A stretch of DNA of 56,984 nucleotides, filler included, from Dugesia japonica (Eukaryota), in assembly GCA_001938525.1 (NCBI GenBank). It is 3 parts of 3 records of this genome, joined end to end, with 100 filler letters (N's around TTAATTAATTAA, not from the genome) between each part and the next. Parts side by side here need not be neighbours in the genome. Positions count along the whole stretch, not along the records: positions 1 to 30,589 come from MQRL01642434.1; 2 more parts are not named here. One strand, given 5' to 3'. Below, piece after piece: positions 2,401 through 52,430 of the stretch (positions are counted from its first letter, which is position 1; the number at the start of each line of letters is the position of its first letter). Both the position numbers and the translations under genes were made by a program. The notes beneath the pieces were generated by a model that saw nothing but the letters and a program-made list of their open reading frames with translations, did not search any database and was not told where the DNA came from.

Positions 2401-2841
2401 TAATATTGATAATATTTTTCTATTTTTTTACAGTTTACGCCTTCTGATTCTACATAATTTACTTATACTTTTATGAGATAAAAAATGTTTTTATATTTTT
2501 ACAGAATTTCGTGAATACTGACTGTTTACACTTTCATTATTGTTATTATTTACAATTCAACTGATTAAACGTTTCTACCATATCCAAATTATTACTAAAA
2601 AATAACTGATCCGATAATTGTTTCATACATTTATTACTTCTAACTGCTAATCAATGTTATACTTAACTAATTTTTACTAACTCTATCCTTTTCAAAATCA
2701 TTATTTACAAAAACTCTCATATTACTTCTTTATTTTAAAAATCATTCCAACCAGACTCTTTTTCTGGTTCGAACACCAATTTAGGTGCATGCAAATGTCT
2801 ATCATATAGATTTAGTAAACCCTTTCCGCTATTTTATTCCT

Positions 2842-4325: not shown

Positions 4326-4399
4326 AGTCGTTGTTGTTGTGAAGTATCTAATCCCAGTTGTTCTGTTACATCTTTGTTTTTGTTTTTTGCCAATTTCTT

Positions 4400-6980
4400 G
4401 AGCATAATTTAAATCAATCTCTTTGCGTTCATTTCCTTGTTAGTCTTTTGCTGAAAATTCTAGTAATGCAGAATTTTGTCTTTCTTCTCATTTCGTTGAT
4501 CCCCTTTGAAATCTCAGTTTATCCTTTGATTTTGTCGATTTTTGTTAGGACTTTGTCTATTGATGTGTCTCTTGCTTGCCACCTCTTCTGTGAGTCTCAA
4601 CATTTCGGATTGGTTCTAAGCTTTTGAGATCTTCCTCTTCAAGGAAAGGTTTACAATTTTCAATTTCTTTCATTAGTACTAAAAGTACTTTATCGCATTG
4701 TAAAATTACTTCCTTCATATTTTTTAGTTCGTCAGAAGAATCTTTTCCTGTTGAGTCTATTGTTTCAGGTCGTTGTCGTTTTTTCTCTTGGCCGATTTCT
4801 TGATCTTTAATTCAAATGTCTCTCTTGCTTGATTTGGTTTCCCTTGTCTTTGATTCTCCAAATATTTGTTGCCATATTTCTTCTTTTATTTTCTTCATCT
4901 CTAGTAAATCTGATCCGCTTAAAAGTGGAGGTCTCCCAGAGTCTTTGCAGTATTCCAGTAACCCACTCTTGATTCCCACCATAAAATCCATATCGCTATC
5001 TTCTTCACTTTGTGATATATTATTCCTATAATTTCTTTCTTTTCTTTCTTTTTCTTGTAGAACCATACGATTACTTATTTCATCAATTTTTTCTATAGCG
5101 TTTTGCAGCGGTCCTTCGTTATTTTCATTTTTTCTAGATTTGTTTTGAATTCTTTGACTTTTACTCTTAACAGTTTCTTTTTCTCGTTTGTTTTGCTTTT
5201 TTAAGTGGGCTTTTAATTTATCAAACGTCTGATAATCTTCTTGCTTCAATTTTNNNNNNNNNNNNNNNNNNNNNNNNNNNNNNNNNNNNNNNNNNNNNNN
5301 NNNNNNNNNNNNNNNNNNNNNNNNNNNNNNNNNNNNNNNNNTTTTTAACGATTTTAATGATTCTTTTCGATCGCGCATTTCTTGATTTTTGAGATGATCC
5401 TTCCACATTTGTTTTGGTTGCTGTTTTGTTTCTTCTGTAATTCTAAGATCAATGTTACTTTCTTTAAATTTATCATACAAATGCCATTCATTTTGCAGTT
5501 CCTGTAATGATCCTCCGAAATTTAATTTTTATACATTGGCCATTCTTTAAAGTCTTGTGCTAATTGTAGCGATCTTTCGTAGTTTTGACAGTTTTGAATT
5601 CTCATTCGACTTCCGTTCCCTTTTTCTCTCCTTTTTCTAGGTAAATTGACATCCTTGGCGATCCTCTTTTGTTCGTTTTTTCTGAATTTCCTTCGAATTT
5701 GCCAACTCTCTGATGATACTTTATCTTCTTCTGTATTTTCTTTATTTTCTATTTCTTGAATTTCTTTGTTAATGTATTTATTTTCTATTTTCTAAATATT
5801 TTGTTTTTGCTTTTTTCATCTGCTTTTAATTTTATTTGTAACATAGCTTTATGAAATTCGTCTACTGCTTCAACCAAATTATATGTTACTATATCTATAC
5901 AATCCAAACAGAAAGTTTTATATACGCTTTCCAAAATTGGAATCTTCACAACTTTCTCCTTTTCTTTGCCCATTTTGCACACATTATTTGTTCACATTTG
6001 ATTGTGTATTATCCATTGTTTTTGTCGTACCACTTATTGTAAAGATTCCTTTAGTTCCTTTTGAACAATACTATAACACCTATCACATAATTTGATCACA
6101 TCTTCCTTTTTGATTGGACATTTNNNNNNNNNNNNNNNNNNNNNNNNNNNNNNNNNNNNNNNNNNNNNNNNNNNNNNNNNNNNNNNNNNNNNNNNNNNNN
6201 NNNNNNNNNNNNNNNNNNNNNNNNNNNNNNNNNNNNNNNNNNNNNNNNNNNNNNNNNNNAAAAGTTGCTTTCCATTTTCTACTGGCATCGTGATTCATTT
6301 TTCGATAATTACTACCGTCTCCTTAGTTACAATCAAAATACTTCTTTTGATATCTACCACATTTCTCGTTGTCACAAATTCTATCAGACGAATAAATTTC
6401 TGTAGTTTTCTCTTTATCAACTGAGCTAATTTTAGACTCAATTTTTTTGGTAACCGAATGAAAGTATCCGTCATTTCTTCCAGCAATATTAATTTCGTTT
6501 CCATTGTCTTTTTTGTTTAATCTGGCCACAAACCCTCCTGAATTTGAAAATGTGACTGGTTCTATTTGCATTCATAATGGTTTTCCTGCTGTAAGTCCTC
6601 TCATATGGCTGTAACAACATGATAAATTTTTATTTATTATTCTGCAAAAATTAATCAAACATCGATTACAAAAATTCTTACATTGTTCTCTTTTTACTTT
6701 ATCAACTATTTCTATTTTTGAACACTGTCCACATGTTAAATTAGCATGTTCTAACTCTACTCATTTCTCTTTTCAAATCTAATAACTGATATACACTGCT
6801 CTTAAACAATAATAACATGATTTAATTAATAGACTTTTTATTAAAGGTATTGATGTTGATTTGATTTTATTATATAGTTTACATCGGTTCTCATTATTGT
6901 ATACGTTAACTTTTGGTCTAGCAGTAATCATATTTATACTTTGTCTTGATCTCAAAGGATATCTGTTTTCGTCATTAGAA
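4400..6980 (-). pseudogene. Post-integrase extension: Cys-rich (CxxC) region followed by charged coiled-coil region
   Basis: The frame continues past the integrase tail RYPLRSR into CYYC, CGQC, CKNFCNRC, CDNEKC, CDRC and CLDC motifs, then the K/E-rich ORF 4812..5480. Confidence 0.55.
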
Positions 6981-8130
6981 ATTTACGGTTTTTGATATTT
7001 CCGTTTCTGTTTCTTTATTTCTGTTGAAAGATCTACTTTAACGATTTTTGGTTCTTCATCTGTTGCTGCTGCTAACTTCCATCTTGTCACGTGCACTAAA
7101 CTTGGTTTCTTTAGTGGATTCCCTACTTCTTTCACTTTTAAATTCGTAGTTGTGGTATCTAATACTACATAAGGACCTCTATTTGGCCGTTTTAATTTGT
7201 TTGATGTGCTAACGTCTATTGATGGTGTATTTACCAAAACTAAATCTCCGATTTTAAATTCATGTGGTTTGGTATCTCTGTCATATAATTTCTTGTAACT
7301 CTCCTGGAAAGATTTTGCATTTGATTTTGCTGATTTTCACAAATCTTCCATATGTTCTTTATTACCAGTCACGTCTTCATTTTCTTCCGTATTCTTAGAT
7401 ATTGGTGGTTGATGTTCTAAATCAATCGGCATGTTGCATTCTCAACCATACATCAATTTAAATGGTGATGCTCTTGTTGCCGGATGTACACCCATCCTAT
7501 AAGCAAATAAACATAAGTTCAACTGTTTATCCCAATTTCTTTAATTTCTAGATACGTACGTCGACAGCATTCTGACTACAGTTTGATTAAATCGTTCCGT
7601 CATCCCATCAGTCTGCGGATGATACGCTGAAGTTCTCAATTTCTGAACGCTAAAGTAGCTTGTAATTTCCTTCATTAGCTCACTCATAAAATTTTTCCCT
7701 TGATCCGTTAAGATCTTCTTTGGTGGTCCGTATCGACTGAATAATTTTTCTACCAACACCTTTGCAATTGTGCCTGCTTTTTGGTCTTTTAACTCAAATG
7801 CTTCTGGATACTTTGATAGATAATCCACACCTACAATGTCCATTGCAATTATATCCATTGGAGCTGATGGTACTATTATTGGCTGTAATAGTGCCTTTGA
7901 CTTCTTGCCAGTGCCCCTTCTTGCTGCACATACTTTACACCGATTTACTTAATCTCTAACACAAGTAGTAATATGCGGCTAATAATATTTCGCTGGCAAT
8001 TTCGATTCCGTTTTCTTTGCAGACATGTGTCCTCCCAATAATTAATTGTGATACTGTTCCAGTATTTTAGTCTATCGACACATAGGGATCACTAATAACA
8101 TTTTCCCTCTTTCTTTCATCCTTAACCTCC
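6980..8130 (-). pseudogene. pol: Integrase (HHCC, DDE core, GPY/F) of giant element copy 1
   Basis: YHN..GGH..CKVC zinc-binding motif; IAMDIVG, ILTDQGKNF, SAYHPQTDGMTERFN; RGPYVV; small internal deletion after DIVG. Confidence 0.93.
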
Positions 8131-8199
8131 CTTTAACATTTTCATATCGTCCTCCCCGTTTTTTGAGGTGTTCATTCATTGCTTTTCCACAGTCAGTTT

Positions 8200-9450
8200 T
8201 ACTTCAATCAAAATGTTTTAGATATTCCGTGATTATTTTCACTTCTTCATCATTTCCTTGATCTTTCTTTAGTTCATTAAAATCTTTATCTTCAGCGAAA
8301 ATTATATATAATGTCGGTACTTCCCGATTCATTAGCTGTTGTAAATCGATTACCATTTTCTCTCCAAATTCTTTTGCTGTAGGCTCTTCTTTATATTCAT
8401 CAAATTTATCTCTTGACATAAAATTTACATTAATGCATATTCCTGTAATTTCATGGCCCATCTTGCCATTCGATTTATTTGTAATGGTTTCTGTCTGATC
8501 ATTGTTAATGGCTGATGATCTGTATATATTGTCAATTGATGTCNNNNNNNNNNNNNNNNNNNNNNNNNNNNNNNNNNNNNNNNNNNNNNNNNNNNNNNNN
8601 NNNNNNNNNNNNNNNNNNNNNNNNNNNGTTGAAAGGTTTTGCTAAAATATCCAAAAACTCGTTCCCAACCTTCCTCATCTAACTGACTCAATACTGATCC
8701 CATTGCATAACCACTTGCATCAGTTGATAGAACGAATAGTTTCTTTAAATCCGGTTGCTCTAATATAGGTGCTGTCATTAATTTATCCCGAATGATTTCA
8801 AATGCGGTTCGCTGTTCTTTTCCCCAATGGAATGTGACATCTAGTTTTACCAAGGATTGTATCGGCTTTACAATTATGGCGAATCCCTTAATAAACTTTC
8901 TATAGAAGTTTGCCATTCCTAGAAATATTTGTACATCATTCACCGTTTTTGGTACTGGAAGATTCTTTATTTTTTCAATAATTTTTGGATCTGGTTGTTT
9001 TCCACTTTCTGATATTAAATGGCCCAAATATGATACTTGATTCTTGGCCCATTCACATTTTGTAGTTTTCACTTTCAATTTCCATTCTCTCAATCTTACA
9101 AATACCTTNCTAAGATCCGTTAGGTGTGCATCAAATGTTGTCAAAAATAATAATAAATCATCAATATATACCATACATTGCGGTAACTCATGTGTTACGA
9201 AATTCGTACATCTCTGAAAAGATGATGGTGCATTTGTTAGTCCAAATGGCATTTTTGTAAATTGATACAAAATCTTTCCCGGCCGAAAATGCAGTCTTGT
9301 CTTTATTAGCCTCTTCAATTTCAATTGCTTCTTCACTAAGTTTTACTTGAGCCTGTGGTTGTCTGAATGGCCTAAGTTTAATTGGTGAATCATCAATTAG
9401 TGGTATTGAATGTTTTTTTACTGAACATATTCCTGATTCTTCATCTTTCC
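8200..9450 (-). pseudogene. pol: Reverse transcriptase and RNase H of giant element copy 1
   Basis: KMPFGLTNAPSSFQR, VYIDDLL, YLGHLIS, FLGMANFYRKFI; RNase H LSTDASGYAMGSVLSQ and IYTDHQPL..RMARW. The RT N-terminal part appears deleted. Confidence 0.95.
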
Positions 9451-9959
9451 AAGCAAAGATGTCTCGAAATTCTTCTAACAGCTCTACTAATCGTTTTTAT
9501 CCTTTTCCGCTAATATTTCTGATTGGATTTTAAATTTTCTATCTACGTCTTCTGTTTCTGTGGTCAGTATAACTTCCATTTTTGCTGCTCTTTGTTTTGA
9601 CATAGGTTTCATTTCTTCAATTTTTAATTTCTCTGCTTTCTCCTCCTCATCAAGAAAGGGTGTCAAAAATCCAATTTGGAATTAAAAAATATTGTAATAT
9701 TCTCTTCCGATGTATTTAACACGTTTATCGGTACTTGTCTTCTATCATCAACATACACCAATTCTTTGACTGCGGGTAGTTTATATCACTTTGTGAATCC
9801 TGGATGAGGCTTAAAATACATATTTCTTCTGTCATTCGTATTTGATTTTGCAACATAACACACATAGCTTTTTCTGGGTATTATGATTTTCTCCGGTATA
9901 TGTACCTCATCATCTTGAGTAAACAAGTTTTCTTTCGAACTAGTAATCTGCAATGTTGT

Positions 9960-10260
9960 CATATCTAAAAGCACATTTTTCATCAGTATAATATCAGTCC
10001 CCAATATACAATGTTCTTTCATTTCCATGATTTTCATATTGTGATCCACTTTTCTTCCATCAAATTCCACTTCACATTTTAATTTTCCAAATACCGCAGC
10101 TTGATTTCCATCTGCCACTATTACCTCCAAGTTACTGATTTCTATATATGGNCATCTAATTTTTGGGACTAAATTAAGATTCAATACTGATATGGTTGAA
10201 TCTGTGTCTAATAATGCTGATATCGGATTTCTATCTATCATTACGTCTATCATTATTCTC
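9960..10260 (-). pseudogene. pol: Main retropepsin-like aspartic protease of copy 1
   Basis: ALLDTDSTISVL (copy 2 has LLDTGAT), flap VADG, C-terminal CILGTD. Confidence 0.9.
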
Positions 10261-10397
10261 GATCCAATTTCCGAGTAAATACAAGATATCATTTTTGGTG
10301 GTTCATATGAATCCAAATTACTTGTTGATTGGATTTCTCGACTATTTCTTGTGTTTGTATGATTACGCGATCTTTTCGTAAATCCTTCTTGAAACCA

Positions 10398-10551
10398 GCA
10401 TTGCCTCTGAATGTGAGCGTATTTTCCACACAGATAACATTGTTTTCTGTCACTTTGATCATCAAATCTTTCTTCTAGTTTAATCGGATAATAACCCTTT
10501 CGATGGTTACATTGTTCTTCTATATGGTTGTTCCTCCTACATATCTGACAT
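10398..10551 (-). other. Two CCHC zinc knuckles in frame with the main protease
   Basis: My translation: CQICRRNNHIEEQC and CYLCGKYAHIQRQC, reading through without a stop into ORF 9786..10316. Confidence 0.88.
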
Positions 10552-10624
10552 CGTTGATTCTTAGTTCAAATTTTACGACTGGTGGTAGTAATAAGTTTAC
10601 TTATTTCTATTTTGCCGTCCGGAA

Positions 10625-11245
10625 AAGTCCTCGGCATCAAATCTAGCCCAATGATACAATCAAACAGCAAATACTCCATTATGTCTACTGGATGTGTGAG
10701 TATCGATTCATGAATTTCGGATGTCTGAGATTTTTTAATTTTTATATTTAATATTAAGATTGGTTNNNNNNNNNNNNNNNNNNNNNNNNNNNNNNNNNNN
10801 NNNNNNNNNNNNNNNNNNNNNNNNNNNNNNNNNNNNNNNNNNNNNNNNNNNNNNNNNNNNNNNNNNNNNNNNNNNNNNNNNNNNNNNNNNNNNNNNNNNN
10901 NNNNNNNNNNNNNNNNNNNNNNNNNNNNNNNNNNNNNNNNNNNNNNNNNNNNNNNNNNNNNNNNNNNNNNNNNNNNNNNNNNNNNNNNNNNNNNNNNNNN
11001 NNNNNNNNNNNNNNTTTTTTAAGAAAAGACTTGTGATAATCAATAAACAATTTATGGAGACTTTTGAGACTTTAAATTTAACTAATAGGGTGTATAAAAC
11101 AAATTGTTTCTGTCTCTATTTTACAATCCATTTCACCTATTATTTTATCTTGTTGTCCACTTTTAAGCACGAAAAATCTCATCGCTGTCTTACTGGCTCT
11201 TGTATCGATCATACAATTGATTTTACGACCATTTATCATTTAACG
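10625..11245 (-). pseudogene. Additional retropepsin-like domain(s) between the glycoprotein tail and the zinc knuckles
   Basis: MINGRKINCMIDTRASKT..SGQQDKIIGEMDCKIE..HPI on one side of the N gap and HPVDIMEYLLFDCIIGLDLM on the other. Confidence 0.7.
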
Positions 11246-11989
11246 TTTCATCAACATGCCACTACTTCGTGATGTTAATGGACATAAACTTTGTGTTTCC
11301 TCATGCTGTGAATTCACTTCATATTCAATAAACTCATTAAATTGTGTAGTTTTGTGTGGCGTAGTTTAAAAAATTTGCATATCATCTAATTTTTTCAATT
11401 TTATCTATGGACGAACTCTCAGTGGATATTCGCATCTTTCTTTATTTTTATTGATTTGTTCATCCAATTGTTGTAATTTTTCATTTAGATAATACGTTTC
11501 TGGAAAATAAAAAAATCGTTCCCCTTGATTTGAGTTCCATATTCGACTTGTTGTTTGTTTAGTTTGCTGTAATTTGCTCCTTGATGCTGGTATCGGTCTT
11601 TCCTAATTCGTCCTTAGAGTATGTGCCCGATGATTGGTTGCTAGTTCTTTTTTACAAAAATTCAGATTTTCATTTATAGCTGTATTCTTATAGTCATCAC
11701 GTTCTTGTTTGCTATCATTTCTTTGGTAATTTAGTTGATAATTTCCGCAATTAATTTCATCTTTATATTCATAGTGTTGGTTATTCACTGTTGCAAACTC
11801 TGCATTTCGTTGTCTTCCATCTGGATAATTATTGCCATCATCGTCACTACTATCATCATCATGACGTTTCCATGGGTGAAACATATCAAAATAAGACGTT
11901 TTCTGATCTTTCTGTTTCCTTAAACCTCTCCCAATTTCCCGCATTTTTGTTCTACAATTTCGCGATCTGTACCTTTTAATTTGCTTTAT

Positions 11990-13845
11990 TTCGTTAGCAA
12001 TTTTCTGGTATTATAGAGATCATTGGAGTAACTATTCAATACCTTTGACTTTGCCCATGCTGGAAATATTCCCATAACCATCGTCCATGAAACTCTTCGT
12101 TTCTTTTTATATAAATCAAAACAGGCTAATATTTGTGTTATTAAGACTTTTACGATAGTTACCATGAATATCACTCCTAATAAACCTGCCATAGCTTGAC
12201 CAAATATAATAAAACGTCCACACATTTTCTTCATTACATTTTCGGCCGCTTTCTGAAAATGATCCGTAGATAATGATCCGTAACTCATAATTTGGCCTGC
12301 CATCTGCCGCATTTCCTCCTCCTGCAATCTGTACTATGTTTGATAATATCTGCATTCATTTTACTGGGAACAACATATGATCCCTTGCTTTATCCAAATC
12401 CAATTGTTTATATACTCCACCTTTGACGATCTTAAACAGGACAAATTTATCTCCTCCTTTTAATTTCAATCTTGAAAAGTTTTTAACATTTCCACCGGCT
12501 ATTAATTTCTATTCCCATTAGGTAATGCAAAATAAGGTCCAAATACGTTTGAGCAATTTAATTTATTCGGTACATATTCTCTCGTGGATATTATTNNNNN
12601 NNNNNNNNNNNNNNNNNNNNNNNNNNNNNNNNNNNNNNNNNNNNNNNNNNNNNNNNNNNNNNNNNNNNNNNNNNNNNNNNNNNNNNNNNNNNNNNNNNNN
12701 NNNNNNNNNATTACTTCTCCAACAACCCGTCCAAATTGTCCTTCTTCCATAGGTAATAAAGGTGTTACGCTATCTGGGTTTGTAAGTGCAGTAGCCAATT
12801 TTGTTTTTAATATTTCCCTATTTAACATACAATCATTCCAGAGTAAATCATGATATGTAACTTCACATCTTGAGGTGACACTGCAGCTTTTGCCCTATCT
12901 AATCTCCTTTTACTCGCATAAATTCCTTTATAATTTGTTTTAAAAGCTAATTCGCCACATTTTGATGCCGTCTTTTTCCGAATTATTTTAATCATATCAT
13001 CTTTTCTAGTCGTCATCAATACGGTAGGAGTATNNNNNNNNNNNNNNNNNNNNNNNNNNNNNNNNNNNNACTCTTTAATTTTATCCACTCGTATTGTTTC
13101 TACTTCTTCTAAATCTACTACTCTTTTCTCGCGATATTCATCAAATGCAGTTTCTTTTAGAAAGGTCAAAATACAATCCTGATGATTAAAATGATATATT
13201 AAAGTATATTTTCCGGATGAACTTGAAAGATCCGTTGCCTTACAGTGTGGATACATTTTCATTGCTAATGTTTCTGTATCAAAATATGCATCATATTCCT
13301 TTAACTCTATTCTGTAACTTTCAATTGCAACTACATAATTGATTACTTTACCATTAACAGTGTATGTTCCTCGGGTGCACCCCCATGTTCATCTGTTATA
13401 CTTCCGGCTGCAAATATTTGTTGTTGAACAATATGACCCGCTTTTGCATTAACAATGACCCCATATCTTATTTGAACTTGTCCGTTAGTGAATCCATTTT
13501 GACAGTGTTGACAAGTTAGATAAATTGACCTTACATCTGTTCTGGCATCTATCATTGCCGTATAGCTTCGGGCTCCGCAATAAAATATTAAGACTCTCAT
13601 TGTTACTATACACTCTTGTATCTTTGCTTTATAATAATCAGATTCCTGATACACAAAATAATTCACACTTTTTCTTACTGGATTCATTCTTTCCGGATTA
13701 GCTTCAGGATACTCGTCTGTGTCTACCAATGAATATACTGTTTCCCAAATTTCCATTTTATCACTATCATAAGTTGTTATAGCTGCAGTTTTATTTATCA
13801 TCATAAATAATAATAAGATCATCATCATCATTGGTTGCCAATTAT
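11990..13845 (-). pseudogene. env: Chuvirus (Jingchuvirales)-like glycoprotein, env-like, with internal signal peptide and C-terminal TM
   Basis: Signal MMMMILLLFMMINKTAA, then YD(C/S)..YSL.D, ECIV..YCG..SY, C..GF..G, FAAGS, C..REIL..KLA....P, G.FG.V.GEV, GGVY...DL...RDHMLFP, FG..MAGLLG..IVK..I. This motif order is characteristic of chuviral G. Confidence 0.82.
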
Positions 13846-13869: not shown

Positions 13870-14500
13870 CTACATCGACTTCATCAATATAATCCTTCAA
13901 TAATTTTTTCGCTTGTACAGGTATACTTTGTTTACAACTATATTTTGGTTTCATTTTCTCAATTAGTCCTGGGCAACCTCCAATTACTGCTAGCAAAGGT
14001 TCAATTTTATCCTTGATTATTTCGATAGCCGGTAGTTTGCGCATGTCAAATTTTGTTATCGGTCTACTTCGGGTAATTATTATAGATGCTTGTTTAATTA
14101 AATATGCAATCGCGATTGCAATTCTTGTTGGTGATGGACCTACTGCAATTAATCCATCTACTGCTTCTTCCGTTTCACTTTTCAAAGTAACTTTTGTTCC
14201 CTGCAAAGCAGGTAATTTTGTAATTAATGGTTCTAATATTGAAGCAATTTGTTCAGATTCTTCCGTTAATTTTGTGCTATCAATCCACATCTTTAGTTCT
14301 GGATATATTTTTAANNAAATTAGATGCATTAGTTGTTCCGTTGTCATTTCTTTTGATTCCATTTGTTCTAACAATTCTTGTGATACAGCTGTTAGTTGTT
14401 TATTTTGCATCACGTTTCTCTTTGATACCTTTTCTTGATTTGAAATTCCATTACTATTTGATGATCCTCATAATTTAGGTAACCTTCCTCGAAATCTTTT
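13870..14500 (-). pseudogene. Conserved helical domain of unknown function, fused upstream of the glycoprotein signal peptide
   Basis: ORF 13343..14413 runs from this domain into G; a homolog is present in copy 2 (48691..49095: IYP.LK.WI.S..L..E..Q.A.ILE..I.KLP). Confidence 0.65.
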
Positions 14501-14959
14501 ATCCATGAATGTTTCTGCATCTCTTGTCGTTGTTTTTTGAAATTCATTTCCAGTTGATTCCCTTGAGCTTCTACATCTTGTATATTTCTTCTGTCANTAC
14601 GTCTGACAAATTCATTTCATCTACCATTTCATCTGCAATTGTTTGTAATCTGGGTGATATTGGCTGTTCTGCATCAATATCCACTTTTTTGGGATTCCAA
14701 ATTAGAGATCCTTCAATCTTTTGACTTCTCATTCCTCTTTCTTTTGCAGGCTCTACTTGAGTTATTTTCGTCATTTCCTTGAGTTTCTGTTCCTTCTTCA
14801 TCATTCGCTGTACAAGATGAACTTTCCGATACTCGTATTGCTGTTTTTGCTGCAATTGTTGATTGAGCTGCCCAGTCTTTTGTGGAACGTCGTCCAGCCG
14901 TAAATTTGGGCTTTTCTGCTAATACTTTTGTAGTTTGTTTCTTCTTCAGCATTCCTTTA

Positions 14960-17900
14960 CCCACCACTGGGTGTATATATATTTTATTTGGATGCCTCAC
15001 TTGCACATCCAGTGTTCCGATAATATCTTTGTTTAGTAATTCCTGATTATAAAAAATAAGTGAATATGGTGGATTAAATGGCAATTTATTCTTTAATTGA
15101 TCCACTGTTTTATAAGCCATTGTTTCCACTCTTGTTTCTTGACTCGTTAGTGCGATTATTCTGAGAGTTATTTTGAGAGGTTTTTCTTCTTCCATCTCCC
15201 GATTTTGCCATTTAGTAATTATAATTTTAAATTGTTTCAGCCTCCAATCACATTCTTCTTTTAATCTTGATATTTGATAAGTTAATTCTCTGAACTCTTT
15301 TAATGATAAATCGCTGCTGATTAGTTGATCCAATAATTGTTGCACTTCTTGCTTTAGTACATTCTCTTGTTTATTGATGGTTGCAAATTGTTGTATTAAA
15401 CTTTGCGTGTTTCCAATATTGTGTCTGTTTCTTGTTGTTGTTGCTGCTATTGACTCGCACGGTTGGCTTATTGGACACAATTCTTTGATCGATTGATCTT
15501 GTGATCTAGATTTTAGTTTTTTTTTAATTTTTTTACTGCTACCGTTTCTCTGAAATCAACATTTAATTCCTCTACATGTATTTGTATTCCCCATGGCACC
15601 TGTGGATTAATTTCATCAATAAAGAACTGAATCGTTTTTCTACGCAACGTTTCTCTTGGTCGTTTCTTAGTATACGGATTCCTTTCTTGATCTTCTGCTG
15701 AAAACACGTAAACATCCATCATCGATTCTGGTCAAATACCTGAAACTTTTACTGAGTTCTCCTCATTTTCCTCAGTGATCTCTTCCCCACAATATATAAC
15801 GATATCTTCGTTTTTAGTTTCTAATCTAATTGCTTTCCTCTTGGCATTTGCGTGTTAATATAGTTAAGTATTTCATTTATTAACTTCTCCCAAGTTGTAG
15901 TTGTTTTAATCCTAAATTCCTTTTCCGATTCATCTGAGAAATATACTGTAACATTTACTGATTGTTTTGGTATGTTTTTAGCATGTATTCCTACCAATGT
16001 ATTAACTAATTCACAGAACATTTCTCCTCCAATTAATTTCAATTGATTTTAATTGATTTATTACTTCTTCTATCTTTAAATTTTGCATTTGTTTATAATT
16101 TTCTTTTATAACCATTCCTATCTTGGTTAATGCCAATCTATATGTCATCCGTGGTTCAATTTCTGTTGTTATTTCTGCTGTTGACCCAATTTCCTCGACT
16201 ATTATATGCGTAAAGCAATCCATTCGATCTATTTCCGCCATAAATATTTCCCTCATTCTTGCACCAATTTTATGTATTGGTTGTATTCGAAACCTTTTTG
16301 GCATTTCGTCATCGAGTTCTAATGTCAATTTTGTTATTTCTCCTGGTCGTAATCTAAATTCAATTAGATGTTCATTATTCTCGTTTAATTTATCTTTTTC
16401 TAATATCATATAATCACACATTATTCTATATTTATTCGATTTCTTCTGCAATGGCAGTTCGCTTATTATATCTCTCAATTCTCCAATAGTTGTAGTTTGA
16501 GAATTTTTAACGGTTTTAGATGTCAAACTTGATGTTGACCCTTTAACTTCGTTTATTACTGGATAAAAAAAATCGGCTCCAACAGTTGTCTCTTTTATCA
16601 GCTCTCGATAACTTTTCGTTATTTTTATCCATTTTCTCTTTTTTTCCCAATTTATTTGAAAATTAAAATATGCGTCGCATAAAAAATTCATCATCTTCCA
16701 ATAACTTTGTTTTGGAATAATCTCTTTTCAATTTATAGTTGTTTTTACTAAATGATCCCTTGCTTCCAAATATCGACTATTTTCTCTCAATTCATCATCG
16801 CACGTCACTAATTGTTCACTCGATTTGCTATGAATTTCTGTAGCTACGCTGCTAGCTTTCTTTTTATCTCTCTTTACTTTGTTCAGTACTTTACTCAAAA
16901 ACGCTCTCAACATACATATATGTGCTTTAGGCCTTTTCTTCGTTTCTGGTATTGAAATTGAGGTTTTTTTGTCATAATTATTATATACCATAACGTTTTT
17001 CTTATACTCCACGTCTAATGATCTCATGATTTGCTCTGTTGTTCGAATATGTAGATGTGACAGTACTGAGGCTTTAAATAAAAACAATCTCTCGTTTTCA
17101 AATAATGTAACTTCAGTAGCACCACCAGGCTTTAATCCATAGATGTAAATGTGCTCATTTACCACCTCTTTGTTAACAATTCTAACTGGTGAACAAATTA
17201 TATAATGTTCAAGTAGTTTTGGCCATTTTAACTCATTCAATGCTTCTAATAGTGCTTTCACCGTTGTATTCTTTAATGCCAATTTTCGAGGAATATTTTG
17301 GTATCCAAATCGGTAATTGTATTTAGATATTTGTTCTTCATCAAATAAGCCATATTTATGCAATCATGTGCGGGTTTTATTGCTTCCATCTCACTAATTT
17401 TATAATCATCCGTAGGCGACCTAAAATTTCCTTTTCATATTCATCGATCATATTCTTCCATTGTAATTAAGTTGTTACATCTATATGTCCTGGCTCTGCT
17501 AATTCAACAATATGATTCATTATCGACCAATATGCTTTTCGATCAATCTTATTTTTCTTTTTTCTAGTTCTTTTCATTTTGTTTCTATATATTCTCTCGT
17601 TTGTGGTTGTTATTTTATTGACGTTTTCATCTTCTCGTTTGTTACAACTTGATTGATCGTCATTTCCGCTCCTTGTTTTGTATTATCATCATGTTTTACT
17701 GAGTTCTTTGATACTTTTGTTTTCCATCTTTTTCTATAATAACCCTTTTAGCTGGTTTCTTTTGTCTGTCCAATAAAGTTTGTGCTCTCATCGAATGCTT
17801 AAAAAATGTCTTGTCCAACGATTAAATTATTTCATTTATTGTTCTATACTCAAAATGCAGGAACGCTGGCTGTTTAGTTTGATATAGTCTATCACTTTCT

Positions 17901-18350
17901 AACAACTTTAAAAGCTGAGTTTTTGCTGGTCGAATTCTATATACCGAAATGTGTTCTTTAAGATTATCCTGATCAATCACNCTTGATGATGAACATAGTA
18001 CATATTCGCATAATGGTTTCGGCCACTGCAGTTCATTTATCGTTGTTTTCAACCCTTTGACTGTTGGTGCATTAATTTCAATTTTCCTCATTATATTCTG
18101 ATATCACCATGGTATAGATTTGGTTTCATCATTAATTGTTGCGTATATGAATCTCTCGATTGACCGTCCCGCCACTTTTGGATCTTCTGAAATCTATTTT
18201 TTCAACGGCTCTATTATCATGATTTTGTAATCATCAGGATTAGTTTCTGTCATCAATTCCACTTCATACTCTTCCGCTTGAGTCTTACAATTCATTTTGC
18301 TAACAGCATCTACATTTGATTAAATGATTCATTATTTTAAAATATGCTTT
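14960..18350 (-). pseudogene. Tandem array of about five ubiquitin-like (beta-grasp) repeats
   Basis: The unit at ~15185-14960 (KITLRIIALTSQETRVETMAYKTVDQLKNKLPFNPPYSLIFYNQELLNKDIIGTLDVQ) aligns by eye with ubiquitin. The other units share TT/TV..L...I/L..L....Y.I....I.......Y/F.L/I.P(G). Confidence 0.6.
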
Positions 18351-18929
18351 CCACTCAATTACATCTCTAATATCTTCTACGAGTTCTAGTTTTTCTTCTA
18401 TCTGTCGTCGAATTGCAGGATAATTTTCCAAAGACTTATCGTCTAAAATCTTCTTGGAACGTATCATATTAATTTGTCCAGCATTAGAATTCGCCATTAC
18501 TCTTGCTCTCAATCTATCCTGAGCTATTTGTTGTTCTTCCACTTGTTGTCACAGATACTCTTGCTCTTGTTTCAATTTTTCAAACGTTTTTTGCTCCTCA
18601 TTCTGAGTCTCTTGTAACATATTTATTTGATGCTGAGGCTTGGCTCTACTACTATTTATTTCCTGCTTTAATGCTTCATTTTGCTGTCTCATTTTCTTAA
18701 TTGTTGGATTTAAATTTGGTTTTGNNNNNNNNNNNNNNNNNNNNNNNNNNNNNNNNNNNNNNNNNNNNNNNNNNNNNNNNNNNNNNNNNNNNNNNNNNNN
18801 NNNNNNNNNNNNNNNNNNNNNNNNNNNNNNNNNNNNNNNNNNNNNNNNNNNNNNNNNNNNNNNNNNNNNNNNNNNNNNNNNNNNNNNNNNNNNNNNNNNN
18901 NNNNNNNNNNNNNNNNNNNNNNNNNNNNN

Positions 18930-20060
18930 TTTCCCACAATTATAACAAGTCATATTTGATGATTGCCAGCTCACTTGTTTGTTGTTATTATTATTCTATT
19001 TAAAATTATTCGTTTGTCCTCTTGTATTCCCAGGTGATAATACCTTCAATAATAGCTGGGCTCTTGCTATAAAATCAGATACCTTAAGAACATTTTTAGT
19101 TTGTTCATCTTGTTCTTCTATTTGAAACACTTTTGATTGAAGAAAGTCAACATTGTGATATACTCTCGCTGAATTTATGGCCAATTCTACTGTTTGCGAC
19201 TGAGTTAAATGCACATGTCTCTTTACGTACGCATTTCCCAACCCTTTTATAAATGCTCCAATTAAAACTTCTTCATTAATATTATCTCAAATAGTTATTT
19301 TCCCAAGTCTTCGCAATTCAGCCGCAAATGCTTGAAATGATTCATCTTTATGCTTTCGTCTGTTCATAAAATCTTGCATCTCCTGACCTTGTAATGCAGG
19401 TGCTTTAAAAATATCTAATAACAATGTTTTAGCCTCTTCCCATGTTTTTACTTCTTTATCTTTCTCAGTGGCTTTATCCAAATAAATAGTTTTATTAGCT
19501 CTAACTAAATACAGTGGTAAACGCTCTACTGCTGTTTTATCGCTTCAACAGCATGCGTTGATATCAATTTCATAGTTTGTGATGAAATCGAGTATTTTAT
19601 CTGGATCTCCGTCATATTTATCACCACTGAAATATGTTCTCCATTCTTTACGTTTATCGTTCATATCCGATTCATGTTGTCTACTATTTGACGACATTTT
19701 ATTTAATTCTTTGATTTCCTCTTGACCGCTTAAATTTTCTGCTTGGCTTTTTGATTCCGAATTCGATAAAAAATGCGACACAAGTACTGTATTATTTCTT
19801 TCTACTATCTGATTTTGATTTTCAATATTGAGTCTGTTTCAATATTTTCCCTTGATTCTGAGGATTCCATTGTTATTCTCAAAGGAAAGCAGTTAGGTGA
19901 TTGATTTGTTTCTGAAGATATTGGCTTTTTAGATATCCTTGATTCCTTTCTTGTAAGTGATGATGCTCTTTGAGATTTTGCTTTGTGCTCTTTTCTACTT
20001 CCAACAGTAGATCTTGTATAATATCTGGGCTTTTCTGAATCTTCAATGGCTATCTTGGTA
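18930..20060 (-). pseudogene. gag: Gag (retrotransposon capsid plus first CCHC knuckle) of giant element copy 1
   Basis: KYDGDP..F...YE, LPLYL, TWEEAK..L...F, DESFQAFAAELRRL, FIKGL, T.ELAI..A, then CYNCGK before an N gap. ORFs 19781, 19481, 19241, 18974 and 18542 are all in one frame. Confidence 0.9.
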
Positions 20061-44469: not shown

Positions 44470-45420
44470 GATGTGCGTATCTCAGTGTTTTACCTGTGGT
44501 TACAATTTCAATTGTTGGTGTATTAATCAGTACCATATCACCCGTTTTAAACGTATGGGGCTTTGTATCTCGATCATTAAATTCCTTATAACTTTCTTGA
44601 TTTAATTTCGCATTTAACGCTGCTAATCTCTATATTTCTTGCATTCTCTCTTTCATGCCGGTAACGTAATCATCCTCGCCCATGTATTGTGATATCGGTG
44701 GCTGAAGCTCCAAATCGATTGGCATATTCCATTCTCTACCATACATTGATTTAAACGGTGACGCGTTTGTCACGAGATGTTCTCCCATCCGATATGCAAA
44801 AAAAAAATCTCTCTGTGATTTCGTCGCATAACTTGATAACATTCTAGTCAATGTCTGATTGAATCGCTCTGTCATACCGTTCGTTTGTGGATGATACTTT
44901 GACGTCTGTACTTTATGAATATTAAAATAACTAGTCACTTCTTTCATTAACTCACTCATGAAATTCTTTCCTTGATCTGTCAATATCTTTTTCGGTGACC
45001 CGTATCGACTTAATAATTTATCTACTAATACCCTTGCAATTGTCGACGCTTTCTGATCCTTTAACGCAAATGACTCCGGAAATTTTGATAAAAAATCCAC
45101 TACTGTCAAAATATAGACTTTTAAACTGTCCGTTGGTGGTAATGGTCTGATTATATCCATTGCAATTATATTCATTGGTGCTGCTGGCACTGGTATCGGT
45201 TGTAACGGAACTTTAAATTTTTTTCCTTTTCCTTTTTATGCTGTACCAATCTCACATTAACCAATTCATTCTTTCACACATGTCGTAATATGCGGCCAAT
45301 AATATTTTGCTCGCAACTTTGATTCGGTTTTCTTTGCTGACATATGACCTCCTAGAATCACATTATGATACTGCTCAAGTATTTTTGCTCGTCGACATTT
45401 TGGTATTACCAATAACAGTT
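44470..45420 (-). pseudogene. pol: Integrase of copy 2
   Basis: IAMDII.PLP, VDFLSKFPE, ILTDQGKNF, YHPQTNGMTERFN; truncated after GDMVLINTP. Confidence 0.93.
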
Positions 45421-45699
45421 TATCACTTTACTTCATCATTAATCACTCATTTACCACGGTATATCTACCACATCGTTTCTTTAAATGTTCCTTCGTCGCT
45501 TTGCAACAACCCACTTTGCTCAAATCAAAGTGAGATTTATACTCTAAAATTATTTTCACTTCTTCGTCCTGATCCTTTTTCAATCCAGTAAAATCTTTAA
45601 TTCTCTGCCAATATCATGCATAGAGATCGTATGTCTCGATTCATTAATTGCTGTAAGTCTATCCATTCACCTCTGGTTGCTTTATTTTCTACCACTTCT

Positions 45700-47000
45700 T
45701 CTGATTCGTCTGTAAATTTTGCTCTTGACATATAATCTGCATTTGAATTTGCTTTTTCAGTTTTTTACTTGACCAGCGGTGCATATTTTTGTAGCTTCAT
45801 CGCCCATCTGGCTATTCGATTTGCTTGTAATGGCTTTTGTCCGATCATTGTTATTGGCTGATGATCAGTGTAAATTATTATTGGATGTCCCAGTATTAAC
45901 TGATTAAAATGTTTTACCGCCTTTACTATTGCTAAAATGTCTCGTTCAGTGGTACTATAATTCTTTTCAGATCCTTGAAATGTTTTACTAAAATATCCGA
46001 TCACACTTTCTCGCCCTTCCTCCTCTAATTGACTCAATACTACACCCATTGCATAATCGCTTGCATCTGTTGCAAGTATAAATGGTTTCCTAACATCTGG
46101 TTGTACCAATATCGGTCATTAACTTTTCTCGAATTGTTTCAAATGTTTTTTGATGCTCATCTATCCAAATAAACTTTACGTCATGTTTCACTAGTGATTG
46201 AATCGGTCTCACGATTGTCGCAAATTTTTCGATAATCTACAAAAATTTATTTTTTTATAAAAAATTTTCGATAATAATTCGCCATTCTTAGTAAGACTTG
46301 AATATCGTTTACATTCTTTGGCACCGGTAAATTCTTAATCTACTCAATATTTGTCAGATCTGATTGTTTTCCTTTATCTGTTATCAGGTGTCCTAAATAT
46401 GCCACTTGCTTTTTAGCCCATTCGCATTTCGTAGGTTTCACTTGTAGTTTCCATTCTCAAAATTTGTACAAATACATTTCTCAAATCTTTTAAATATTCC
46501 TCAAACGTGACAGAAAATATCAACAGATCGTCAATATATACCATACACTGTGGCATGCCATGTGTCACAAAATTCATGCATCTCTGAAATGATGCTGGCG
46601 CATTTTTCAGTCCAAACGACATTCGAACCAATTAATCATTACTGCTGAAAATGCAGTTTTCTCTTTATCTGCTTCCTCTATTTCGATTTGCGAATACCCA
46701 CTCTACAAATCCAACGTCGTAAATATCTTTACTTTATAATAAAACGTTAACATATCATTGATGTCTGGTAACGGATATGTATCCTTTTTCGTTTTCGCAT
46801 TTAGTTGTCTGTAATCAATGCAGAATCTTATTGTTCCCTCTATCTTTTAAACCAATACTACTGGAAATTGATCGGTGAACAACTTTGGTCAATTAATTTA
46901 CATTTTAACATCTCCTCGATTTTCTCCTCGCAGATATTCCTGTTTGCCTCGACCTGTTTGTAAGTTTGCAACTTTATCGGTGTTTCGTTTGTTAATACTA
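45700..47000 (-). pseudogene. pol: RT and RNase H of copy 2
   Basis: RFCIDYRQLN, TLDL..GY.QI, FGLKNAPASFQR, VYIDD, TDASDYAMGVVLSQ, NYSTTERD.LA, YTDHQP. Confidence 0.95.
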
Positions 47001-47449
47001 TTGAATATGTACCGCACATGTACCTAATTTATTGCCTGTCCACGCAAAAATATCTCTGAATTTCCCCAATAAATTTAATAATTTAGCTTTTTCTGCAGCT
47101 GATAAAATTGTTGATTCCACTTTAAACGTTCGATCGACTTCTTCAAAATTTGTCGGTAGCTCGATTTCAATTCGCTTCGCCATTTCTCCTTTTAATTTCT
47201 CGTAATCATAGTTCACCATATTATCCATCTCTGCCTCGCCGTCTCCCAGTGGAGTTAATACTCCGATTTTTGAATTTGGATATATCGTTATATCTTTTTC
47301 TGTCGTATTTAGTACATTCACTGGCACTTGGCCCTCGTCGGACCTTTTTACTATTTCCCTTGCTACTAGTAATTTATATCGTTTCGAGAACCCCTCGTGC
47401 GGTTCAAAAATCATATTCTCTTTACAGTTTTCTCTGGTTTTAAGGTCAG

Positions 47450-47741
47450 TCCCCAAAATACAATCTTCACTCATATTCATCACCGTCATTTCATGAGATA
47501 CTGTTCACCATTGATATTCAACTTCACATCGTAATTTGCCATACACCTTGGGTTGCCATCCATCCGCTAAAAATATTTCTGATTTATTCTGTGTAATATA
47601 TGGCAACTTGGTTGGTGATACTAAATTAGAATTTAATACTGATATTGTTGCTCCGGTATCCAACAACGCTGATAATATCCTACCATCGATTTTTAGGTCT
47701 ATTAATATCCGGTTTTCAGCCTCAGAATAATTATAACACAC
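47450..47741 (-). pseudogene. pol: Aspartic protease of copy 2
   Basis: ALLDTGATISVL, LADG, CILGTD. Confidence 0.92.
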
Positions 47742-47769
47742 GTAATCCTTCTTTTTTGTGTGTCAGACC

Positions 47770-48568
47770 ACAACAGCGCTTCCTCCTTTGTTTCCATTGC
47801 TACATTTACTTTACCAACGGCTGGCATTCACTCCTTTTTAATGGAGTCAACAATTTTCTTTCCTCGATACTCATCGAACAAGACCTCCCTAAGAAATGAC
47901 ATCGTACATTCCTGATGATTGACTTGATATACTATGGTTGACTCTCATGTATTACACGAATTATTGGAGGCTAAACACATCGAGTACATCTTCATCTTTT
48001 TGGTCGTTGTATTAAATAAGGCATCAAAATTTTTGAATTCCGCTCTTTAAATTTCTATGGTCACGACTCCAGTCGCATAGCCTAAGAGGTTAGTGTATTT
48101 TCCTTGTACGCAAGTTACTGTTGCATTTGAAAAGGATCCTGCTGCGAACAGACGAGTTTGTACTATTTGACTTCTTTTGGCATTTATTGTTTTCCCTTTA
48201 CTCACGTGTTTTTTACCGGTTGTAAATCCAGCTTCGCATTGTTGTCGTGTGAGGATAACAGGTATTGCTTCTATACCTGGGGATATGATTGCCGAATAAC
48301 TACTTCCTTCACAATATACAAACACTTGCATTGTTACTTTACATTCCATGACCTTTGTCTTGTAATTATCTGATTCTTGGTCCACAAAATAACTCATCGA
48401 CTTATGTACAACTTCTAACTTTTCTGGGTTTGCTTCTGAGCATTCCTCTGCATCGATTAATGAATACACTGTTTCCCCGATATCCATATGATCACAATCA
48501 TAAGCTTGAATTGCTGCACTTCGTCCCATTAAGAACATTAAAATTAAAACCATGAACATTGACTGCAT
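47770..48568 (-). pseudogene. env: N-terminal half of the chuvirus-like glycoprotein, copy 2
   Basis: Signal MFMVLILMFLMGRSAA, then IQAYDC..YSLIDAEEC..ECKV..YC..SY..QQC..GF..G..FAAGS..TC; joined by a deletion to PR with no N gap. Confidence 0.82.
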
Positions 48569-49699
48569 ACTGCTCGTGCCTGTACTTCAATTGATCTCTG
48601 TTCCGTATTCATCAATGTTATCCTTTAATAATGCATGTACTCATTCGTTTAATTTGTGATGTGAATTCGTTTTTGGTTTTATCTTTTCCATTATTCCGTT
48701 CCTTTGACATTAACTAGCAATGGTTCAATTCGAACATTTGTTATCTTGACTATTGGCAAGGTGCTTAATTGAAATTTCATTCCCGGTCTACAACGGGACA
48801 ATGCTATTGGCGTTTGTTTTACTAGATATGCACATGCCACTAATAACCTTGGAGTCGTTGGACAATTTGACATTAGTCGTTGTACCTCTTTTTCCATTGT
48901 TTCTTGATCTTTGAGGGATGTATATTTTGCAACTGGTAATTTTACTATTATTGATTCTAATATCGCTGCTAATTGTTTACACTCCATTGACAAAAGTTTA
49001 CTTCCAATCCATAGTTTTAAATTCGGATATATCGCTTGCAATACCTGATGTATTCGTTTCTCGGTCGATATCGTGTGTGGTTCTAATTGCTCCATTATTT
49101 CCGTCTAAAATTCGACCATTTGTTCATCTCTTGTTGGTTTTCGCCTCGTTGTACCACTTGTTGTTGCTCCTTTTTGTCGACCTCTTGGTTTTTTATCCAT
49201 CCACGTCTACACATCACGCATTAATCGTTGATGTGTCTCATTATCGGTGGTTTCATCTGTATTATCCGTTGCGGCAGGTGGTATTATTTCGTCTGCAATT
49301 TTGTCCAATCTAACTGATATATCATCGTCTTCTTGATCCAAATCCACTTGTTTCGGATTAAATCTTCCGACGTCTTTGATTTCATTGGTATTTCCGACTC
49401 CGACTTTGAAGCTGGTTCCATTGGGATTATCTGAATCTCTTACTCATCTACCTCATCTTCAAGATCCAAAATTTGTTCAACTATTTCATCTTCTGTAGTA
49501 TTTTCTGTTGTCAACTCCTTGATTGGCGATTTTCTTGGTCGTCCTCTTGATTTGGCAACTACTTCACTCGTGTTACCTGGCGTCATTGGTTGTACAAATG
49601 ATTTTATCGACGTATGACTTGATCCTAGCCTCGATTGTAATTTATTTTTAATTACCTTGGCTGGTAATTTTCTTCTGATCAATCGTTTACTACCTTTCG

Positions 49700-52430
49700 G
49701 TTTGATATAAATTTTATTTTATACCTTTTGTCGGATATCCAACGTTCCGATGATATCTTTATTCAATAATTCCAGATTATTCAGTAGTAGTACATATGGC
49801 GGGTTGAATGGTATTTTGGATTTCATCTGTTCTACTGTTTCGTAAGCCAAATTCGAGATTCTCGTTTCAAGACCATCTAGTTCTACGATTCTGAAGCTGA
49901 ATCTAAGGGGTACTACTTCATCTTGTTCGTATTTTCTCCATCTTGATATCAGCAGTTTAAATTGTTTTAGTCTCCATTTGCATTCCTCTTAACATCGGGA
50001 TATTTCGTAGGTCAATGATCTCAACTCCTCAATTTACAAATCACTCTGCAATAATTGATCCGCTATACGCTCCACACTGGTTTTGTTTATACTTTTCTCT
50101 TGAATTTTTTATATAAATTGATCTATCATATCGGCAGAATCTTTACTACATTTTTTCGATTTACCAGTTATTACCGCTACCATCTCTTGTGATCTACTCA
50201 ACTCTTGATTTGATTTGTATTTTCGATGTAGCATTGGTCTCTGCTGTATTACCGCTATCGTTTCTCGATTTGCTAATTCAATTTCATCATTATGTAGTTG
50301 CGATCCCCATGGCAACTTTGGATTAATATTATCGGCATAATATCGTATTGTCTTTCTACACAAATTTCTCTGATTGATTTTAACGTATACGGGTTTCTGT
50401 CATTTTCTCCATTGGCAAAAATATAGACATTCATAATATGACCTGGCCATATGCCTGATCGCTTTACCGGATACTCATCATGATTCTCTATGATCTCTCC
50501 TCCGCAATAAACTACAATATCCTCTCATTTAGTAATGTGTGTATTCTCTTTTCCCTTCGCTGTTTGCTTATTTAAATGTTTGATAATTTTCTTTATTAAT
50601 TTATCCCAGCTTGTCGTCGTTTTAATATCGAACTCTTTACTTGACTCATCTGGAAAATATTCTGTTACTTGCACATCTTGCTTTGATATGTTATTTGCAT
50701 GAGTTATTGTTAACGTATGTATGAGCGTATACAACTCTTTTTCTTCAATCATACACAATTGGTTCAATCTGTTTATTATCTCTTGAAAATTTAACTCAGT
50801 CATTTGACTGTAATTCTCGTAAATTGTTAACGCCATTTTTGCCATAGTTTGCTTCAAACTTTTCCACGGTTCACTTTCGTTTTCTGCTTCTGCAATCTGC
50901 TTGATCTCCTCGTCAGTAACGATTCTCAAATATTCCATTTTATCTATTTCGTTTACATACACATTTCTCATTTTTGTTCTAATTCGACTAATTGATTGTA
51001 ATTCAAACTTTTTCGGTTTTCCGTCATCTAATTCCAATGTTAACTCAGTAATCTCTGCTGGTCTCAATCGTAATTCAATCACATGTTGATCCCTTTTATT
51101 CAGTTTGTCTCTTTGTATAATCATCTATTCACACTTAATCCGATATTTCTCAAATATCTTCTCCAAAGGCAATTTACTCAGTATTGCTCGCAATTCACCC
51201 ACTCTGGTAGTTTTAAATTTCTCAACTGTTTTTGTCATCATAGTCATGCACAAATTATCATTCATTGTAGGATAGTGGAATTTTTACCCCAAAATTTGAT
51301 CCCACTGTTGTTGCTGCGATCATCTACTGATACTGTTTAATTAATTCAGACCAATTCCTCCGATGTTCCCATAATATATCATAATGATAGTTTGCATCCC
51401 AAACTAAATTCAGCATTCTCCAATACGTTTGTTTCGGAACTAGTTCCTTCTTCTCCAATGTGATATCCACGTATTTGTTTATTGCAGCTAAAATATGATA
51501 GTATTTCTCATTGCTGTCCGCGTTGGCAGTAGCTGATGTTTCACTCGGCACATTCGCACTTTCTTCTCCCACATTACTTGATTGTTTACCACTCTTTTTA
51601 CCTCTATTTATTATTTTACTCGAAAAAGATATCATCATAAAAACTCTAGGGGGTCCTGGCTGCGTTCTCGATAACTGTTCATCGTTAGCTTCTGTAGTAG
51701 TTTTAATTACAACGCTTGGTATTTCAGCTTTTGGTAATTCACTCGAATGGATTACCAGTGATACCTTCTTTTCTGACAACGGCGCGAGATATTTAATTTG
51801 GCATTTATTTAACGAAATCATTATATTTTTAGTTGTTTTAAAGTAGAAATGAGGCCAAATTAGTTCGTTATATAAACGCATTCTGCGATTTTCTAACAAC
51901 GTAATTACCATATTAGTTCCAGGTTTTAGACCATATTCGTAAATATATGCATTCATATCATTGATACCAACTACTGACACTGGGGTACATATAATATATT
52001 CGCCTATGGGTTTTACCCATTCCAACTCCTTCAACGCGTCGATTAAGTCTGTTACTGTCGTTTCTTTCAGTTTTAACACTCGTGGGATATTCCACTTTGT
52101 TGCAGCTGGTACTTTCTACAAGACATAATCCTTCGTGATGTATGCGGTTCGATCTTCATCTGGTCCCCATGCTTCCATTGCTTTGATTTTATAATCCCCC
52201 GCAGACGTGTTTTCAAACCACTCTTTCTCATATTCCAGAATTAATGGTCTCCATTTCTGATTCGTCATCGTGTCAATATGACCTGGCTCCGCTAGTTCCA
52301 CCAAATGATACATTATTTTCCAAAAAGCCTTCCTAGTTAATTCATCTTTCAATAATTTAGCATCTTTTATGACTGTTTCTACATAATCATACCTTACATG
52401 ATCCGAGTGTTCTTTTCTCATAAATTGTTT
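49700..52430 (-). pseudogene. Ubiquitin-like repeat array of copy 2 (four units visible)
   Basis: Homologous to copy 1 units B-E, e.g. RIVELDGLETRISNLAYETVEQMKSKIPFNPPYVLLLNNLELLNKDIIGTLDI. Confidence 0.6.

Follow-up and report, generated by a model that had tools for sequence, protein, structure and literature searches.

What are the small, repeated domains encoded between the Gag and envelope (Env) regions of a decayed giant retroelement in the planarian Dugesia japonica, and what might they have done for the element that carried them? The question is raised by a 56,984-nucleotide stretch of this genome (assembly GCA_001938525.1; three parts of three records, joined with filler; hereafter 'the window'), in which an original prediction, made from sequence alone, had placed a tandem array of about five ubiquitin-like (Ubl) domains. 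The window DNA is AT-rich and animal-type (GC mostly 23-37%, with N-masked stretches) and contains two copies of a single Ty3/gypsy family, both decayed, both on the minus strand and 64-70% identical at the DNA level in a self-comparison of the window; copy 1 spans ~19,900 down to ~7,000 and copy 2 spans 52,450-44,500. We suggest, with a probability of about 0.5, that the units are beta-grasp domains, integral to their chain and not conjugated, which belong to the accessory region of a Gag-accessory-Env-Pol polyprotein of the type of Burro, a planarian element; one module (units A, B and C) would have been triplicated, with the remaining two (D and E) being separate.

The repeat itself was confirmed: A, B and C are genuine copies of one unit of ~270 amino acids, as the original prediction of three repeated modules had it. 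They start at ~18344, ~17535 and ~16706 on the minus strand (spacing 809 and 829 nt), and in each unit of ~270 codons a leading helix and a variable stretch come before a core of ~80 residues, which is followed by a short tail. In local alignments scored against 300 shuffles, A and B share 37% identity over 105 amino acids (z 29.9), B and C reach z 8.6 (10.4 using the copy-2 version of B), A and C give z 6.2, and the leading helices of A and B z 6.0. Since the best control pair in this set of 120 pairs reached z 5.7, the local A-C score is marginal on its own. Global alignments of the cores gave p=0.002 in 10/10 pairs among A1, B1, B2, C1 and C2, this value being the floor with 500 shuffles, all of which were beaten.

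Taken in order along the minus strand, on which all parts of the two copies lie, repeat A opens with a coiled-coil-like linker and its leading helix (18306..18722), in the frame of the Gag zinc knuckle and with weak coiled-coil-type Pfam matches only; its core (17783..18166), a beta-grasp candidate with a short conserved tail, carries several stops, is absent from copy 2 and is recognised through its similarity to B. The leading helix of repeat B (17428..17595) is 54% identical to its copy-2 counterpart (z 25.9), with a ratio of non-synonymous to synonymous change (pN/pS) of 0.35, and is followed by the B core (16977..17345), again a beta-grasp candidate. Repeat C comprises a leading helix (16578..16727; 46% to copy 2, z 27.4) and a candidate core (16221..16580) that is stop-free in copy 1. 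In copy 2, helix and core of repeat B lie in one frame with one stop (51768..52370), and repeat C lies at 50906..51449 (45-46% identity to copy 1). A helical linker (15990..16220), which forms long helices in the copy-2 model and has generic helical matches only, connects C to D.

The two compact units that had been predicted downstream also exist. Unit D (15678..15973) is split in copy 1 by a frameshift near 15825, and its copy-2 counterpart (50396..50689; 53-60% identity to copy 1), which was the one modelled, lies in one frame with one stop. Unit E (14950..15190) is a ubiquitin/SUMO-like candidate, stop-free in copy 1 and 51% identical to its copy-2 counterpart (49669..49928), and is preceded by a conserved helical segment (15200..15330; 65% identity to copy 2, pN/pS 0.30). 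The idea that all five units form one homologous array was not confirmed by comparison: similarity between D and the A-C group is weak (z 3.5, p 0.004), the two being alike in register; E shows no detectable similarity to the A-C group (z 1.0) or to D (z -0.9); and profile comparisons among the units returned probabilities of 0.2-1.2%. The region is therefore better described as three repeats and two single units than as five copies, and the best reading is that D and E are older or were separately gained. We also observed a third-strand cysteine at about the same position in all seven A-D cores seen across both copies, which is absent in E.

Turning to fold, the model of copy-2 D comprises two strands, a helix and three strands, and superposes on beta-grasp chains; its top matches fall on integral beta-grasp domains (PB1, USP7 Ubl, PI3K, FERM) no less than on SUMO or ISG15, and half of D matches Rad60-SLD with an E of 0.061, below the Pfam cut-off. 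Unit E falls into the Rad60-SLD/ubiquitin cluster of the ESM Atlas at 0.93 (168/256 features), as a language-model look-alike. In Pfam it comes closest to UBL_UBAC1 (E 0.14), with no match for a tighter cut of the unit and no PDB sequence match at E<=10, so that the good alignment to ubiquitin claimed for E was not borne out. Across the Pfam ubiquitin clan no unit piece rose above any family's curated cut-off, and identity of the units to ubiquitin and SUMO chains among the structural matches is ~8-20%. For repeat C, the core had no ESM Atlas match, and its structure prediction was of low confidence (pLDDT ~30). A wide structural search with a combined C+D model was set aside, as its matches were dominated by the helical linker and say nothing for or against D. 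Below the level of significance throughout, we regard a beta-grasp fold as very probable for D and only a shade less so for E; for A-C the same fold is plausible, and we lean towards it.

A different fold for the repeats is one alternative. Only D and E might be beta-grasp, with the A-C repeat adopting some other small alpha/beta fold, PDZ-like or new, such that the region would hold two Ubl domains, a number close to the single one on record, and an unrelated triple repeat. We consider this unlikely, although a serious contender: the modelled first helix has 10 residues and is followed by a strand, a short helix and a strand, as in ubiquitin; root-mean-square deviations to the ubiquitin family are mostly 2.9-3.4 (with two rows at 4.3-4.5) versus 3.1-6.1 for PDZ rows; and A-C are similar to D in register. 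More doubtful still is the most expansive proposal, in which all five units are beta-grasp and a captured Ubl has expanded into a multivalent 'hub' of tandem Ubl domains, the equivalent in a mobile element of the ISG15, OASL or USP7 arrays. Such a hub, produced as part of the same chain as Gag, a BCL2-like protein and Env, would disable ubiquitin/SUMO-dependent pathways of silencing or cell death in the stem cells of flatworms, and the number of repeats would differ from one family to another under conflict with the host.

Whatever their fold, the units appear unsuited to conjugation. A Gly-Gly at, or within 20 residues past, the last strand was found in 0/8 cores (copy-1 D is left out of this count because the frameshift splits it), which upholds the predicted lack of a C-terminal di-glycine. 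With neither a di-glycine nor a significant sequence match, we expect no conjugation, and no cleavage by hydrolases of the kind that acts on the ubiquitin inserts of pestiviruses.

Conservation of B-E between the copies, which the original prediction had also asserted, was confirmed: all four are present in copy 2 at 44-60% identity, with pN/pS of 0.30-0.54 (bootstrap upper bounds 0.45-0.80) and change biased to third positions. For comparison, Env gave 0.47 and integrase 0.22; all these values derive from locally aligned codons, which biases them downwards, and dS is saturated. A value of 0.52 for reverse transcriptase/RNase H (RT/RH) was set aside because the alignment crosses a frameshift. 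Units B-E are under purifying selection, and from this, together with their identity in copy 2, we take them to have been protein-coding and constrained before the element decayed.

The element reads Gag, accessory region, class III Env, protease (PR), dUTPase-like domain, RT/RH and integrase (IN), and its Gag capsid and PR-RT-RH-IN order are those of a Ty3/gypsy element. A capsid domain (19095..19631; two stops) is matched below the curated cut-off by the Pfam families Retrotrans_gag (E 7.5e-5) and Ty3_capsid (E 0.0011), and is followed by the start of a CCHC zinc knuckle (18725..18950), seen by eye in the translation and running into a 205-nt N-masked stretch. The units lie after this first knuckle and before the helical domain found upstream of the Env signal peptide. 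Capsid and knuckle thus both lie upstream, which places the units in an accessory region between Gag and Env rather than inside Gag, as had been proposed; given two further knuckles beyond Env, the nucleocapsid may nevertheless be split. Between Gag and Env copy 1 is broken by stops and ~10 frame changes, so we infer, rather than see, a continuous reading frame; the breaks in the two copies fall at different places, which fits one long ancestral frame that decayed after insertion. Both copies are dead, and any function discussed here is that of their active ancestors.

Synthesising these observations, we tentatively propose a mechanism in which the units act as cytosolic docking modules on host proteins, by analogy with known integral Ubl domains. 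A single module of ~270 amino acids (helix and core) would have been triplicated within the element to give A, B and C. In polyproteins generally, the part ahead of a signal peptide does not leave the cytosol, and signal peptidase releases it; the part of the polyprotein upstream of the Env signal peptide would thus remain cytosolic, be cut from Env by signal peptidase, and probably be trimmed further by the element's own protease. The beta-grasp domains might then present a row of docking surfaces, in the manner of the tandem Ubl domains of USP7, that engage host proteins of the ubiquitin pathway or of cell death; together with the possible BCL2-like domain next to them, they would help the element to persist in stem or germ cells. 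A Burro1 accessory domain is reported, second-hand in the cited part of PMC13465017, to be anti-apoptotic and to protect planarian stem cells; this, with the neighbouring BCL2-like slot, makes host ubiquitin or cell-death proteins the likeliest, if putative, partners, an assignment to which we would give slightly less than even odds.

The helical domain in that slot (13997..14371; 38% identity to copy 2) resembles BCL2 by position and by eye only, and had no Pfam or PDB match. It holds the single YPxL-type match of each copy (14305 and 49029), whilst no PTAP, PPxY or YPxL pattern occurs within the array units.

Alternatively, the array might act as a multivalent decoy: by imitating poly-SUMO or poly-ubiquitin it would sequester host readers, ligases or proteases of transposon silencing or innate defence. 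SUMO acts in piRNA-guided silencing, the layout is tandem with repeated duplication, SUMO, ISG15 and OASL-type chains are among the structural matches, and B and C have changed more than integrase. Against this, the low identity to ubiquitin and SUMO chains would make the units poor mimics, they sit ~270 amino acids apart instead of head to tail, and pN/pS between copy 1 and copy 2 gives no sign of positive selection; we judge a decoy improbable.

We find it distinctly improbable that the domains serve the particle itself, whether by aiding folding, by acting as spacers or by binding the Gag or RNA of the element. Coronavirus nsp3 Ubl1, which binds nucleocapsid, offers a model for such a role; the units come straight after the zinc knuckle, their first helix shares the frame of Gag, and purifying selection acts on them. 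The nsp3 domain is, moreover, an integral Ubl that binds peptide, according to the section cited of PMC12102759. What weighs on the other side is that the protein P0004, with the same Gag-Env-Pol frame, lacks these domains, and that other Burro accessory domains point to host apoptosis and ubiquitination (PMC6431247, a review, in the part cited).

A role in budding fares worse. The original prediction had raised the possibility that the array recruits ESCRT, which would here replace ubiquitination of Gag; the element does carry an Env, and in the third strand of D an aliphatic residue and a glycine stand at what we take, by eye, to be the positions of ubiquitin Ile44 and Gly47. In retroviruses, ubiquitin fused to Gag can substitute for late domains. 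The array itself, with its very low identity to ubiquitin, has no late-domain pattern, the conserved YPxL-type motif lies outside it, and P0004 manages without it, such that this role is very improbable; the motif of the helical domain, of the ALIX-binding class, may be a stronger candidate for a late domain than the array is, or may have a purely structural role. Finally, that the domains are processing signals cut by host ubiquitin hydrolases is barely credible, despite the several cuts that a polyprotein needs and the precedent of cytopathic pestiviruses, in which ubiquitin inserts release NS3 via cellular hydrolases (PMC8310069, in the passage cited), given that no core has a di-glycine and that the element has its own protease and signal peptide.

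Sequence searches found no relatives for the units. A word-index search with B and C in proteins of 247-788 amino acids gave 0/5,547 candidates, and one with the helical domain and Env in proteins of 656-2,000 amino acids gave 0/2,915. An A-C profile (D and E were not among the queries) found no relative in 1.84 billion representatives, two matches, to an LRR protein and a DUF3471 protein, being discounted as sums of weak matches in repeat proteins. Searches of PDB sequences gave nothing but noise at E>0.5 or no match, NCBIfam nothing useful, and BFVD no match under E 0.4. In the literature on Ubl domains in long terminal repeat (LTR) retrotransposons we did not find a triplicated module or up to five beta-grasp domains, although figures in the primary Burro papers may depict Ubl domains beyond the one reported. 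This type of element, its Gag-Env-Pol order and a single Ubl in this slot have been published (PMC6431247, in the part cited); a run of up to five Ubl-type domains appears to be undescribed.

Downstream of the accessory region, the broken Env of copy 1 (11990..13830) comprises a signal peptide, a class III fusion glycoprotein (Pfam Monjiviricetes_fusion, E 1e-12 and 2.7e-9) and a membrane anchor. Two further CCHC knuckles, an aspartic protease and a dUTPase-like remnant follow (9660..10565; Asp_protease_2 E 1.1e-4, zf-CCHC E 6.1, and tblastn to P0004), Pfam placing the protease near 10,250-9,990; the dUTPase-like domain between PR and RT is weakly matched by PF00692 in copy 2 (E 0.09) and not in copy 1. 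RT, RNase H and integrase occupy 7076..9500 (RVT_1 E 4.8e-20, RT_RNaseH E 3.2e-17, rve E 6.7e-5). Copy 2, whose 5' end is unit B, with no Gag or unit A upstream, retains the helical domain, a truncated Env, PR, dUTPase-like domain, RT/RH and IN (44516..49095); near 47750 its mid-Env runs straight into the protease, without the remainder of Env or the additional knuckles. In copy 1, the regions 10400-10550 and 11050-11250 hold the two post-Env knuckles, immediately ahead of the protease, as well as another protease-like remnant, which lies upstream of the knuckles across a masked stretch (z 7.2 to the copy-2 protease; Pfam E 0.021); duplication, a nested insertion or a split nucleocapsid may account for these.

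No long direct repeat that could be an LTR pair surrounds copy 1 in the self-comparison of the window, these elements being decayed and giant ones possibly exceeding it, and a scan of the window found no tRNA gene. Downstream of integrase, frame remnants at 1500-6600, also on the minus strand, include a Cys-rich stretch, coiled-coil-like stretches and hydrophobic segments; three pieces scanned from them gave no real Pfam match, and they may represent accessory genes of this element. At 31042-31934 (minus strand) there is a third gypsy RT/RNase H fragment, which is more distant, and between the copies are local duplications of ~330-bp period (38271-38886) and an AT-rich direct repeat pair spaced 6.6 kb (33933-34090 and 40538-40692). 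Directly upstream of copy 2, 52940-54500 holds arrays of 18-19-bp tandem repeats; tandem repeats are likewise marked in the legend of the Burro figure in PMC6431247.

Burro-type elements are the largest known LTR retrotransposons. If their accessory region holds expandable arrays of Ubl fold, part of the 'dark' region of the polyprotein would gain a name, small domains would become available for partner screens, and retroelements would be seen to grow host-interaction domains through internal duplication.

How, then, does this element compare with known systems? With ubiquitin, SUMO, ISG15 and the pestivirus inserts it shares a probable fold and the presence of a Ubl within a viral-type polyprotein; its units differ in having neither a C-terminal di-glycine nor a significant sequence match. 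Closer in kind are the tandem Ubl1-5 domains of USP7, PB1, the ABD and RBD of PI3K, FERM F0/F1 and nsp3 Ubl1, which are likewise divergent, non-conjugated beta-grasp domains within a larger chain and which, in the case of USP7, are integral and bind partners (PMC4624675, in the section cited); identity is 10-14%, with no kinship shown, and the domains in the window are far apart, with helical spacers.

Amongst retroelements, GAG-ENV-POL elements occur in nematodes, bryozoans and flatworms according to the cited parts of PMC13524379, and the C1a errantiviruses of Platyhelminthes described there, with an Env of HSV/gB type (Smed_errantivirus_1-6), share the gene order of our element. Among the rows of one page of its supplement, the window Env is closest by eye to six Schmidtea C1a rows (13/20 and 9/17 identities to the first, in two stretches). 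The parts of that source cited describe no accessory region for C1a errantiviruses, the word 'ubiquitin' occurring 0 times in the main text and seven supplements. P0004, the best RT/RH match (40% identity) among 493 giant candidates, has an intact Gag-Env-Pol frame of 2,293 amino acids with a knuckle, Monjiviricetes fusion protein, PR, RT, RH and IN; it differs in that Env directly follows the knuckle, with no accessory array, and the A-C, D and E profiles do not match it.

The nearest likeness is to Burro itself (PMC11410931, in the part cited, merely names it). The cited section of the review PMC6431247 describes a single polyprotein of 4,873 amino acids with Gag, CCHC knuckles, accessory domains and a Ubi2/SUMO-like motif (PF11976) before a BCL-2 motif, then an in-frame Env related to mononegavirus fusion proteins, followed by PR, a dUTPase-like domain, RT, RH and IN; about half of the chain is left without annotation. 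The window element, with a coding span of ~12.9 kb (4,300 codons) against the 4,873 amino acids of Burro1, shares with Burro/GYPSM1 this domain order, including an Env of mononegavirus fusion type upstream of PR, and has candidates for the Ubi2/SUMO-like domain, for the BCL2-like domain in its slot and for the dUTPase-like domain. We class it as Burro-like by architecture; no Burro sequence was among the search matches. It differs in its two extra knuckles after Env, in the lack of any MATH, BIR, RING or ankyrin match in the window pieces scanned and, most directly for the question posed here, in carrying up to five candidate beta-grasp domains, a triplicated 270-amino-acid repeat included, where the cited section names one SUMO-like motif.
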